From the NCBI RefSeq assembly GCF_029227855.1, contig NZ_CP074356.1: DNA of 64,000 nt, one strand, 5' to 3'. The position numbers and the translations under genes were made by a program. A model generated the notes under the pieces. The model had not been told where the DNA came from. It searched no databases and was given only the letters and a program-made list of their open reading frames with translations. Below are positions 59,507-62,189 of the stretch, piece by piece (the stretch's first letter is position 1; each line of letters begins with the position of its first letter). Source of the DNA: Escherichia coli. GTDB taxonomy: Bacteria > Pseudomonadota > Gammaproteobacteria > Enterobacterales > Enterobacteriaceae.

Positions 59507-60259
59507 ATGGCTGTAACTAAGCTGGTTCTGGTTCGTCATGGCGAAAGTCAGTGGAACAAAGAAAACCGTTTCACCGGTTGGTACGACGTGGATCTGTCTG
59601 AGAAAGGCGTAAGCGAAGCAAAAGCAGCAGGTAAGCTGCTGAAAGAGGAAGGTTACAGCTTTGACTTTGCTTACACCTCTGTGCTGAAACGCGCTATTCA
59701 TACCCTGTGGAATGTGCTGGACGAACTGGATCAGGCATGGCTGCCCGTTGAGAAATCCTGGAAACTGAACGAACGTCACTACGGTGCGTTGCAGGGTCTG
59801 AACAAAGCGGAAACCGCTGAAAAGTATGGCGACGAGCAGGTGAAACAATGGCGTCGTGGTTTTGCGGTGACTCCGCCGGAACTGACTAAAGATGATGAGC
59901 GTTATCCGGGTCACGATCCCCGTTACGCGAAACTGAGCGAGAAAGAACTGCCGCTAACGGAAAGCCTGGCGCTGACCATTGACCGCGTGATCCCTTACTG
60001 GAATGAAACTATTCTACCGCGTATGAAGAGCGGTGAGCGCGTCATCATCGCTGCACACGGTAACTCGTTACGTGCGCTGGTGAAATATCTTGATAACATG
60101 AGCGAAGAAGAGATTCTTGAGCTGAATATCCCGACTGGCGTGCCGCTGGTTTATGAGTTTGACGAGAACTTCAAACCGCTGAAACGCTATTATCTGGGTA
60201 ATGCTGACGAGATCGCGGCGAAAGCAGCGGCCGTTGCAAACCAGGGTAAAGCGAAGTAA
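59507..60259 (+). CDS. gpmA: 2,3-bisphosphoglycerate-dependent phosphoglycerate mutase
   Basis: Internal ATG at 59507 gives 250 aa ([17 protein letters not shown] with the RHG catalytic motif). Confidence 0.97.
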
Positions 60260-60285
60260 ACGTCATTCGTTTAAAAAATAAATAT

Positions 60286-60311
60286 CCTCCGGCATAGCCG
60301 GAGGTTTTTCA
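60286..60311 (+). terminator. Intrinsic terminator after gpmA
   Basis: cctccggc-ata-gccggagg hairpin followed by TTTTTC, about 27 nt after the gpmA stop. Confidence 0.55.
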
Positions 60312-61026
60312 AATGCGCCTATAAGGCTCTCTTACCAGCCGCGCCCTAACAGGCGCACACGATCTGACATTTGCATCCAACTTCGTTACTTACGGCCCGT
60401 AAACGGGCTGCCCGGATAGGGAATCGATAACTGCTCTCCCATTTTATCCTCTTCAAGCTGGTGCTTTATGTAATCCTGTATCTTCGCCGTGTTCTTACCC
60501 ACTGTATCGACGTAGTACCCTCTGCACCAGAACTCCCTGTTCCTGTATTTGAATTTCAAATCACCAAACTGCTCGTAAAGCATCAGACTGCTTTTCCCTT
60601 TCAGATATCCCATAAACCCGGATACGCTCATTTTGGGCGGGATCTCCACAAGCATATGGATATGATCTGCACAGCATTCAGCTTCCAGAATCCGTACGCT
60701 TTTCCACTCACACAGCTTTCTCAAAATACTGCCTATTGCTCTACGCTTCTCTCTGTAGAACACCTGTCTTCGGTATTTTGGCGCAAAAACTATGTGATAT
60801 TTACAGTTCCATCGGGTGTGCGCTAAGCTCTTTTCGTTCCCCATTGGGACCCCCTTTTGATTTCTTGTTTGACACTTGCAGTTGCCAGACCGCAAAGTGT
60901 TTTAACAAATCAAAAGGGGTTTTAATAACTGGCTCAAAGCTGAAAGCTTTCCGGAACCCCCAGCCTAGCTGGGGGTTTTCTGTGCACAATGAGAAAGCCG
61001 ACTGCAAGTGAGTCGGCTTTTTTGTT
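60311..61026 (-). mobile_element. IS200-type insertion sequence (IS200/IS605 family), about 0.7 kb, termini approximate
   Basis: Contains a 152-aa Y1 HuH transposase and, upstream of it, the two IS200 hallmarks: an RBS-sequestering stem-loop (60852-60920) and a terminator-like hairpin (60955-60977); the gpmA-aroG spacer is about 0.7 kb longer than two native terminators/REPs would need. Confidence 0.7.
60386..60844 (-). CDS. tnpA: IS200 transposase TnpA (Y1 HuH transposase)
   Basis: Internal ATG at 60844 gives 152 aa MGNEKSLAHTRWNCKYHIVFAPKYRRQVFY… with the HxH motif (ADHIHMLVEIPP) and a catalytic Tyr region; near-identical to the IS200 TnpA as remembered. Confidence 0.92.
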   Translation of the reverse strand: MGNEKSLAHTRWNCKYHIVFAPKYRRQVFYREKRRAIGSILRKLCEWKSVRILEAECCADHIHMLVEIPPKMSVSGFMGYLKGKSSLMLYEQFGDLKFKYRNREFWCRGYYVDTVGKNTAKIQDYIKHQLEEDKMGEQLSIPYPGSPFTGRK

Positions 61027-61052
61027 TGTCGTTGCTAACAATGGAGCACATT

Positions 61053-61126
61053 GCCTGATGCGACGCTGCGCGTCTTGTCAGGGCTACGGTGATTCATCGG
61101 ATACGCCACTCTGACGGCGCATCCGA
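61053..61126. repeat. REP-like palindromic units downstream of aroG
   Basis: gcctgatgcgacgctgcgcgtcttgtcagggctac and cggatacgccactctgacggcgcatccg resemble REP consensus units. Confidence 0.5.
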
Positions 61127-61136
61127 CAATTAAACC

Positions 61137-62189
61137 TTACCCGCGACGCGCTTTTACTGCATTCGCCAGTTGACGTAACAGAGCATCGGTATCTTCCCAG
61201 CCGATGCAGGCATCAGTGATGCTCTTGCCATAGGCCAGCGGTTCCCCACTCTCGAGGCTCTGATTGCCTTCCACCAGATGGCTTTCCACCATCACGCCAA
61301 TAATGGCCTTTTCGCCACCGGCAATCTGCTGGCAAACGTCAGCACAAACATCCATCTGCTTTTTAAATTGTTTTGACGAGTTAGCATGGCTGAAATCGAT
61401 CATCACCTGTGCTGGCAGGCCTGCTTTGTTCAGCCCTTCTTTCACTTCAGCAACGTGCTTCGCGCTGTAGTTAGGCTCTTTACCGCCGCGCAGAATGATA
61501 TGGCAATCGCCGTTACCGCTGGTATTCACAATCGCCGAATGCCCCCATTTCGTTACGGACAGGAAGCAGTGCGGCGCACCGGCGGCATTAATGGCATCGA
61601 TAGCCACTTTAATCGTACCATCAGTGCCATTTTTGAAGCCTACCGGGCAAGAAAGCCCTGATGCCAGTTCGCGGTGCACCTGCGATTCCGTAGTACGTGC
61701 GCCAATTGCGCCCCAGCTCATCAGGTCAGCGAGATACTGCGGGGTGATCATATCGAGAAATTCACCCGCTGCTGGCAAACCGCTGTCGTTAATATCAAGC
61801 AGCAATTTACGGGCAATACGCAGACCGTCGTTGATCTGGAAGCTGTTATCCATATGCGGATCATTAATCAGCCCTTTCCAGCCCACAGTGGTACGCGGCT
61901 TTTCAAAATAGACGCGCATCACGATTTCCAGCTCATCTTGCAGCTCTTCACGCAGCGTCAGCAAGCGAGTGGCATACTCTTTAGCCGCGACAGGATCATG
62001 AATTGAGCACGGACCAATCACCACCAACAGGCGATCATCATTACCTTTCAGGATCTTATGGATCTCTTTTCGGGCATGGGCGACCGTATTCGCGGCATTT
62101 TCAGTAGCGGGGAATTTTTCCAGCAATGCGACAGGAGGAAGTAACTCTTTGATTTCTTTGATGCGTAAATCGTCGTTCTGATAATTCAT
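61137..62189 (-). CDS. aroG: Phe-sensitive 3-deoxy-7-phosphoheptulonate (DAHP) synthase
   Basis: 350-aa ORF starting MNYQNDDLRIKEIKELLPP; matches AroG. Confidence 0.97.
   Translation of the reverse strand: MNYQNDDLRIKEIKELLPPVALLEKFPATENAANTVAHARKEIHKILKGNDDRLLVVIGPCSIHDPVAAKEYATRLLTLREELQDELEIVMRVYFEKPRTTVGWKGLINDPHMDNSFQINDGLRIARKLLLDINDSGLPAAGEFLDMITPQYLADLMSWGAIGARTTESQVHRELASGLSCPVGFKNGTDGTIKVAIDAINAAGAPHCFLSVTKWGHSAIVNTSGNGDCHIILRGGKEPNYSAKHVAEVKEGLNKAGLPAQVMIDFSHANSSKQFKKQMDVCADVCQQIAGGEKAIIGVMVESHLVEGNQSLESGEPLAYGKSITDACIGWEDTDALLRQLANAVKARRG

Follow-up and report, generated by a model that had tools for sequence, protein, structure and literature searches.

A predicted host terminator hairpin abuts an IS200C insertion between gpmA and aroG of Escherichia coli

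The hairpin that stands beside an IS200C copy in the gpmA-aroG spacer of an Escherichia coli genome is, on comparison of occupied and unoccupied sites, very probably host DNA, namely the native Rho-independent terminator of gpmA and aroG, and as such a structure of an ordinary, already known kind. It lies at positions 60994-61020 of the window, by which we mean the whole 64,000-nucleotide stretch of DNA that was analysed, and the features of the region are listed in Table 1. The initial annotation had left the ownership of the hairpin between the host and the element and had treated their adjacency as incidental. The comparisons set out below indicate that the adjacency reflects a strong insertion-site rule of IS200: the element adjoins the hairpin because it inserts at the 3' end of a terminator T-tract, left end first.

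Table 1. Features of the gpmA-aroG region, with positions in the window.
Feature	Position	Strand	Basis
gpmA CDS, stop codon TAA at 60257-60259	59508-60259	+	ORF list; gpmA in matching E. coli records
IS200C insertion, 712 bp, no target duplication	60276-60987	-	Filled/empty comparisons, independent copies, BLAST limits
IS200 right-end subterminal hairpin, CCTCCGGC-ata-GCCGGAGG	60286-60304		IS200C copies, terminator scan, fold
tnpA, 152-aa Y1 (HUH) transposase	60386-60844	-	PF01797 Y1_Tnp; RefSeq IS200C family transposase
IS200 5'UTR stem-loop sequestering the tnpA Shine-Dalgarno sequence (published nt 69-138)	60851-60919	-	Inverted repeat, Rfam, PMC4513863
IS200 left-end hairpin, AACCCCCAGC-cta-GCTGGGGGTT, published bidirectional terminator nt 12-34	60955-60977	-	Inverted repeat, fold
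Predicted host intrinsic terminator common to convergent gpmA (+) and aroG (-)	60994-61029		Empty sites, single copy, folds
REP-type palindromic element GCCTGATGCGACGCTGCGCGTCTTGTCAGGGCTAC in the aroG 3'UTR	61044-61085		Sequence; sub-threshold Rfam match; empty sites
aroG CDS	61137-62189	-	ORF list; RefSeq annotation of matching records

Five gpmA-aroG spacers that carry no IS, those of K-12 MG1655, NY1601, GF4-3, CPww7 and Z1323HEC0494, all hold the intact hairpin, which starts 24-25 nt past the gpmA stop codon. The empty sites read ...GCGAAGTAAACGTCATTCGTTTAAAA(A)TGAGAAAGCCGACTGCAAGTGAGTCGGCTTTTTTG..., the gpmA stop codon being followed directly by ACGTCATTCGTTTAAAA(A)TGAGAAAGCCGACTGCAAGTGAGTCGGCTTTTTTG.... 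Z1323HEC0494 has the GTTTGTCGT variant past the T-tract, as found in the window, together with five A before TGAG, and judged by these features it comes closest to the site as it stood before the insertion.

The element was also compared with IS200C copies at five other E. coli loci (adeD/uhpT, ldtD/mukB, sbcB/plaP, pbp4b/yfeX and near sseA). These six independent insertions are alike only from AAATAAATAT... to ...CTGTGCAC(AA); the stretch common to the window and the other five runs from (A)AATAAATATCCTCCGG... to ...GGGGGTTTTCTGTGCACAA, after which the flanks diverge. The hairpin does not travel with the element, as all five of the other E. coli flanks differ past ...GTGCACAA and AAGCCGACT is absent from the flanks at these five loci, and the left-end flanks inspected in other species each carry a different hairpin sequence. 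BLAST matches that cover the IS alone end at window positions 60989-61000, 4576 genomes each hold the hairpin region once, and published IS200 numbering would place the hairpin at 'nt -6 to -32', which is outside the element. The comparison with the K-12 spacer and with IS200 termini that the initial annotation had proposed has thus been made, and it assigns the hairpin to the host.

The element has the characters of the IS200 group of the IS200/IS605 family: a single Y1/HUH gene within about 0.7 kb, subterminal hairpins at both ends, no terminal inverted repeats, no target-site duplication, and RNA structure in the 5'UTR (the STnc490/art200 region). Its tnpA is intact (Pfam PF01797 Y1_Tnp, E = 3.8e-38), and no further IS200 copies were found in the window. 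The left-end hairpin, which is conserved in all IS200 copies compared, corresponds to nt 12-34 when nt 1 is set at about 60988; in the published anatomy the terminator occupies nt 12-34 and the Shine-Dalgarno stem nt 69-138 (PMC4513863). This left-end terminator, published as bidirectional, goes back to Beuzon et al. 1999, as cited in PMC4513863, and it reportedly stops about 85% of impinging transcription (PMC5435999). The right-end hairpin folds at -15.5 / -15.9 kcal/mol, is terminator-like on both strands in a consensus terminator scan, lies 26 nt past the gpmA stop codon and is followed by TTTTT on the plus strand. It had been taken for gpmA's own terminator, at 60286-60311; this assignment has to be given up, as the hairpin is found in all IS200C copies at other loci and in no empty gpmA-aroG spacer.

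Several further observations were made on the element and its relatives. The Rfam model STnc490 (RF01405) matched 60854-60977 over its full length with 144.6 bits (gathering score 56). This match lies on the tnpA-sense strand, and in PMC4513863 the tnpA 5'UTR has STnc490/art200 on its antisense side; the sense strand may have served as the basis of the model, or it may be the palindromic structure that scores there. An imperfect 13-nt inverted repeat, TGCGCCTATAAGG / CCTAACAGGCGCA, is present at 60314-60357 between the tnpA stop codon and the right-end hairpin and may be the counterpart of the StyR-24 RNA, which in S. Typhi is reported directly past the end of the IS200 transposase ORF (PMC2943607). 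IS200-like sequence is common in E. coli, with a median of 2 and a maximum of 36 matching places per genome when the gpmA/aroG flank match is counted in, and some of these are on plasmids. Positions 1-1035 of NZ_CP116067.1 (strain DETEC-S792) contain an IS200/aroG-terminator junction identical to that of the window, along with a shorter tnpA of 399 nt, no right-end hairpin and a directly adjoining ISL3-family transposase gene; this looks like truncation by a secondary insertion.

Comparison of the filled and empty gpmA-aroG spacers gave a simple gain of 712 bp with zero target duplication. Filled and empty forms of four other loci differed by 711-712 bp (711 at one site), again with no duplication and with a 2-3 nt T ambiguity. 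Because both junctions lie in A/T runs (left flank ..TT and right terminus ..TTT, in the tnpA orientation), the frame of the element slides by up to 2 nt, to 60276-60987, 60277-60988 or 60278-60989, and across all five filled/empty pairs the junction is still ambiguous by 2-3 T. When the host sequences CGTTTAAA and AATGAGAAAGCC that flank the IS are rejoined they give CGTTTAAAAATGAG, the five-A empty site. The insertion lies within the A run between gpmA and the hairpin, 16-18 nt past the stop codon and 6 nt from the foot of the stem, with tnpA co-oriented with aroG. In the filled site 735 bp separate the gpmA stop codon from the start of the hairpin, in line with the distance of about 740 bp first given for it.

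Across the hairpin region the window reads gagAAAGCCGACTgcaagtgAGTCGGCTTTtttgtttgt. Inverted-repeat detection returned perfect 10-nt arms, AAAGCCGACT (60994-61003) and AGTCGGCTTT (61011-61020), around the 7-nt loop gcaagtg (61004-61010), and the stem is a perfect 10 bp with 5 G:C pairs. The sequence and position of the hairpin were correct in the initial annotation; its description as 'followed by six T' was not, as the T run totals six, of which two were already in the stem as written there and four follow before GTTTGT. On the plus strand the T-tract spans 61018-61029, with T6 (61018-61023) and then GTTTGT, and three T of the T6 run are able to pair within the stem. The plus-strand RNA folds at -21 kcal/mol (z = -3.85, equalled by 1 of 200 shuffles) and the minus-strand RNA at -15.7 kcal/mol (z = -3.78, equalled by 0 of 200 shuffles), so that on both strands the GC-rich stem-loop is more stable than expected by chance. 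The minus-strand tail is TTTCTCATT, which leads directly into the IS200 left end; in the empty sites the tail in the aroG direction extends as TTTCTCATTTT(T)AA, T-rich across 12 nt. There is a U/T-rich tract 3' of the stem on both strands, the weaker one being on the minus strand, and the hairpin closely follows a stop codon, where a transcription unit ends. From the aroG stop codon (61137) to the hairpin end (61020) is about 116 nt, with the REP element in between.

The consensus terminator scan of the window did not report the hairpin at 60994-61020, and given this miss the hairpin was assessed by folding and inverted-repeat detection. On our reading of the fold, the upstream A-tract would pair with the T-tract, so that the stem is lengthened and the tail consumed; such A-tract/T-tract symmetry is expected when both strands of a hairpin have the form of a terminator. 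Among the E. coli variants compared the stem is invariant, and the loop, T-tract and distal flank differ: the GF4-3 loop has 3 additional nt, the CPww7 T-tract reads GGCATTTTT, and a 7-nt indel polymorphism is found directly past the T-tract at window positions ~61027-61033, where the window, NY1601 and Z1323HEC0494 have TTTTTTGTTTGTCGT(T/C)GCTAAC and K-12, GF4-3 and CPww7 have TTTTTTGTTGCTAAC. Conservation of the stem inside one species is weak evidence of function, as overall divergence is low and zero compensatory changes were seen. A match to the Rfam RcsR1 model at 60945-61023 scored 24.9 bits, short of the gathering score of 60, and was dismissed as chance.

The hairpin is predicted to terminate transcription in both directions. 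The same GC-rich stem, flanked at opposite ends by an A-tract and a T-tract, would provide a U-rich tail whichever way it is transcribed, a strong one for gpmA (UUUUUUGUUUGU) and a weaker one for aroG (UUUCUCAUU). Bidirectional E. coli terminators likewise have a GC-rich stem of 7-10 bp, a short loop, a 5' A-tract and a 3' T-tract and sit in a short spacer between two convergent genes; we see no structural difference from them, with the qualification that the aroG-side U-tract is interrupted, that a REP element comes before the hairpin when read from aroG and that the activity here is a predicted one. The suggestion that the hairpin is the original, possibly bidirectional, gpmA/aroG terminator displaced by the insertion is upheld by the empty sites and the independent copies, with termination itself inferred from the structure. 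The literature searched, including one supplement, yielded no published transcript 3' ends for gpmA or aroG. The REP-type palindrome between aroG and the terminator differs among strains. A sub-threshold Rfam match to naRNA4, which is REP-derived (61023-61084, 33.1 bits where the gathering score is 59.5), in our reading reflects the REP element only.

After the insertion, aroG would retain its native terminator with the proximal tail unaltered. This terminator would now also shield tnpA, in series with the IS200 left-end terminator, both being upstream of tnpA. Transcription from gpmA would be cut off from the native terminator by 712 bp and would first meet the IS200 right-end hairpin and its TTTTT. 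Because TTTTT follows on the plus strand and the scan flags both strands, the right-end hairpin probably substitutes as the gpmA terminator. That the gpmA terminator has been swapped and that of aroG kept is probably the reason why the insertion is tolerated. It is nevertheless rare, the filled gpmA-aroG site being present in 6 of 5426 complete E. coli genomes (search with window positions 60150-61250). Isolate 362 (NZ_OW967178) is one strain that carries it.

Each of the six E. coli insertions has its left end against a host hairpin and T-tract, which lie where a co-oriented gene has its 3' end (aroG, uhpT, mukB, plaP, yfeX and sseA). A scan with a left-end 20-mer, using one genome per species, gave 32 further loci, the taxa covered being Citrobacter, Brenneria, Kluyvera, Mangrovibacter, Pluralibacter, Yersinia pekkanenii, Entomohabitans, Kosakonia and several metagenome-assembled genomes. 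It was found that a GC-rich hairpin with a T-tract abuts the left end in 33 of 35 unique left-end flanks from the Enterobacterales, where a hairpin was counted if its stem had 5 or more bp, of which 4 or more were G:C, and ended at most 10 nt from the junction, and if at least 5 of the last 8 nt were T. The two flanks that fell short, L007 and L015, carry imperfect hairpins. T occupies positions -1 and -2 of the left flank in 35/35 cases and -4 to -7 in at least 29/35; G/C begins at about -8 and predominates at -10 to -12, the end of the stem being some 8 nt away from the junction. The site in the window has the least T-rich tail among the 35 targets. As background, a hairpin with a T-tract was present at 0.2% of all positions in the same loci, at 10% of comparable T-runs and at 16.5% of T-runs outside long ORFs, and relative to the last of these figures 33/35 has a binomial P of ~6e-24. 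No right-end flank had a hairpin with a T-tract (0/8). For IS1541, copies are reported to lie 17-139 bp downstream of genes.

Much of the setting of this pattern is not new. Terminators of the intrinsic and bidirectional kinds are textbook or published matter, as are IS200, the two structures at its left end and its polarity, and a host terminator beside IS200 is ordinary and already explained. Terminators are enriched upstream of IS200/IS605 elements at the family level, which has been read as a niche that limits transposase expression (10.1101/2025.07.22.666184, preprint). The family-level association is therefore already reported, and the target rule described here is at most a sharpening of it. 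We found neither a nucleotide-level rule nor a mechanism in the literature searched, which excluded the older IS200/IS1541 papers and the family review.

Three other explanations have to be weighed against these conclusions. One, raised in the initial annotation, is that the hairpin belongs to the IS200 left end, perhaps as the terminator already known there. The hairpin is just 6 nt from the element, a bidirectional left-end terminator is known in IS200 (PMC4513863), and some BLAST alignments of IS copies reach window position 61000. The two structures resemble each other, both being perfect, short, GC-rich palindromes near the left end and upstream of tnpA; acting in series, the host hairpin would affect aroG read-through as the IS200 terminator does. 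We nonetheless consider this explanation refuted for practical purposes, as the hairpin is present in 5/5 empty sites and in 0/5 other independent IS200C insertions. The true left-end hairpin, at 60955-60977 (CCCCCAGC/GCTGGGGG), is owned by the IS and travels with every copy, whereas the host hairpin has a different sequence, is specific to its locus and is found without the IS. The alignments that extend to 61000 are accounted for by A-rich stretches followed by GCC... at other sites, which belong to their own terminators. It could also be that the host hairpin terminates gpmA only, with aroG transcripts ending or being trimmed at the REP element or by Rho. The plus-strand tail is a textbook T6GTTTGT as against TTTCTCATT on the minus strand, the minus-strand fold is the weaker of the two (-15.7 vs -21 kcal/mol) and aroG is separated from the hairpin by a REP element; with so weak a U-tract and the intervening REP element, aroG transcripts might end or be processed elsewhere. 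We think it unlikely that the hairpin serves gpmA alone, however, as the empty-site aroG tail is T-rich over 12 nt, IS200 is inserted in the aroG-sense orientation here as it is at 32 other clear terminators, and the scan shows no other hairpin with a T-tract between aroG and gpmA.

The third explanation concerns the target pattern itself: IS200 may insert at any T-run, with only those copies surviving that are shielded by a terminator or are harmless to their neighbours. IS200 and IS1541 insertions within genes are known (hisD984 and inv). The reading of the terminator niche as one that limits transposase expression (10.1101/2025.07.22.666184) also favours selection after insertion. Against it, the junction is fixed relative to the stem, with T at positions -1 to -7 giving way to G/C at about -8, and selection would impose no such precision; a hairpin is found at 16.5% of non-ORF T-runs as against 94% observed; and the right-end flanks are without such a feature. 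The fixed distance between stem and junction thus argues against selection alone, and although we allow survival of favoured copies a modest chance of being the whole explanation, we prefer to account for the pattern by insertion at the T-tract end of terminators.

How such targeting might work can be considered by reference to IS608 and ISDra2. We propose that the IS200-group TnpA, or the single-stranded circle junction, targets a GC hairpin and T-run in single-stranded DNA and integrates at the T-tract end through an AAAA guide, a scheme to which we give an even chance of being right. The single-stranded target would be the lagging-strand template, or the non-template strand at an RNA polymerase paused on the terminator, and integration would take place ~7-8 nt past the stem, roughly where transcripts end. 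In IS608, a 4-nt guide 5' of each hairpin foot reads the cleavage and target sites, of which the left cleavage site is in flanking DNA and the right one is 10 nt 3' of the hairpin (PMC3201880). On the tnpA strand, IS200C has AAAA or AAAAA 5' of its hairpin feet, in GTGCACAG-AAAA-CCCCCAGC (window 60944-60989) and TTTG-AAAAA-CCTCCGGC (window 60277-60320). Its right-end hairpin is followed by ATATTTATTT (10 nt), its left flank is a T-run, and both cut sites are T-runs. By analogy, the AAAA 5' of the left-end hairpin foot would read the T-run, and IS608-style A:T pairing of guide and target would account for the need of a T-run; that AAAA acts as a guide in IS200C is inferred from this likeness.

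The likeness of IS200C to IS608 and ISDra2 takes in the Y1 transposase, subterminal hairpins, the lack of terminal inverted repeats and of duplication, insertion 3' of a short flanking sequence beside the left end, and the complementarity of the AAAA 5' of the feet to the left T-run and to the ...ATTT right terminus; with IS608 it also includes a right-end hairpin foot 10 nt from the terminus. The elements differ in that a tetra- or pentanucleotide suffices for IS608 and ISDra2 (TTAC and TTGAT), whereas IS200 sites add a GC hairpin directly 5' of the T-run. This hairpin requirement falls outside the IS608 rule and could come from recognition of a hairpin in single-stranded DNA, from exposure of the non-template strand at paused polymerase, or from selection. 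The idea that the target mimics the right end, with a hairpin at the same distance from the cut, was unsupported, as the target stem is ~3 nt nearer the cut. The plus strand of the window has negative GC skew in 7 of 8 bins, which puts the tnpA-sense 'top' strand on the lagging-strand template, in agreement with what is reported for the IS200/IS605 family (PMC5027513).

A parallel to the proposed behaviour exists among retroelements. Bacterial class C (IIC) group II introns are reported to insert after intrinsic terminators (Robart, Seo and Zimmerly 2007). These introns share with IS200 a site made up of a terminator stem-loop and T-run, in a transcriptionally quiet and harmless spot. They differ in being retroelements that use RNA-DNA pairing and reverse transcription, whereas IS200 is a single-strand DNA transposon of the HUH/Y1 type.

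For annotation, the analysis sets the boundaries of IS200C and its insertion point at gpmA-aroG to within a slide of up to 2 nt, and two errors are avoided, that of naming the right-end hairpin a 'gpmA terminator' and that of naming the host terminator an 'IS200 left end'. The pattern seen at 33 of 35 sites also offers a practical aid for locating IS200 boundaries and native terminators in the Enterobacterales, and gives a simple, testable target rule for a famously dormant transposon. If the proposed structure-specific targeting is right, IS200 would be a DNA-transposon counterpart of the terminator-homing group IIC introns, and its near-harmless and near-silent character would be explained by its landing behind a host terminator and carrying terminators at both of its ends.
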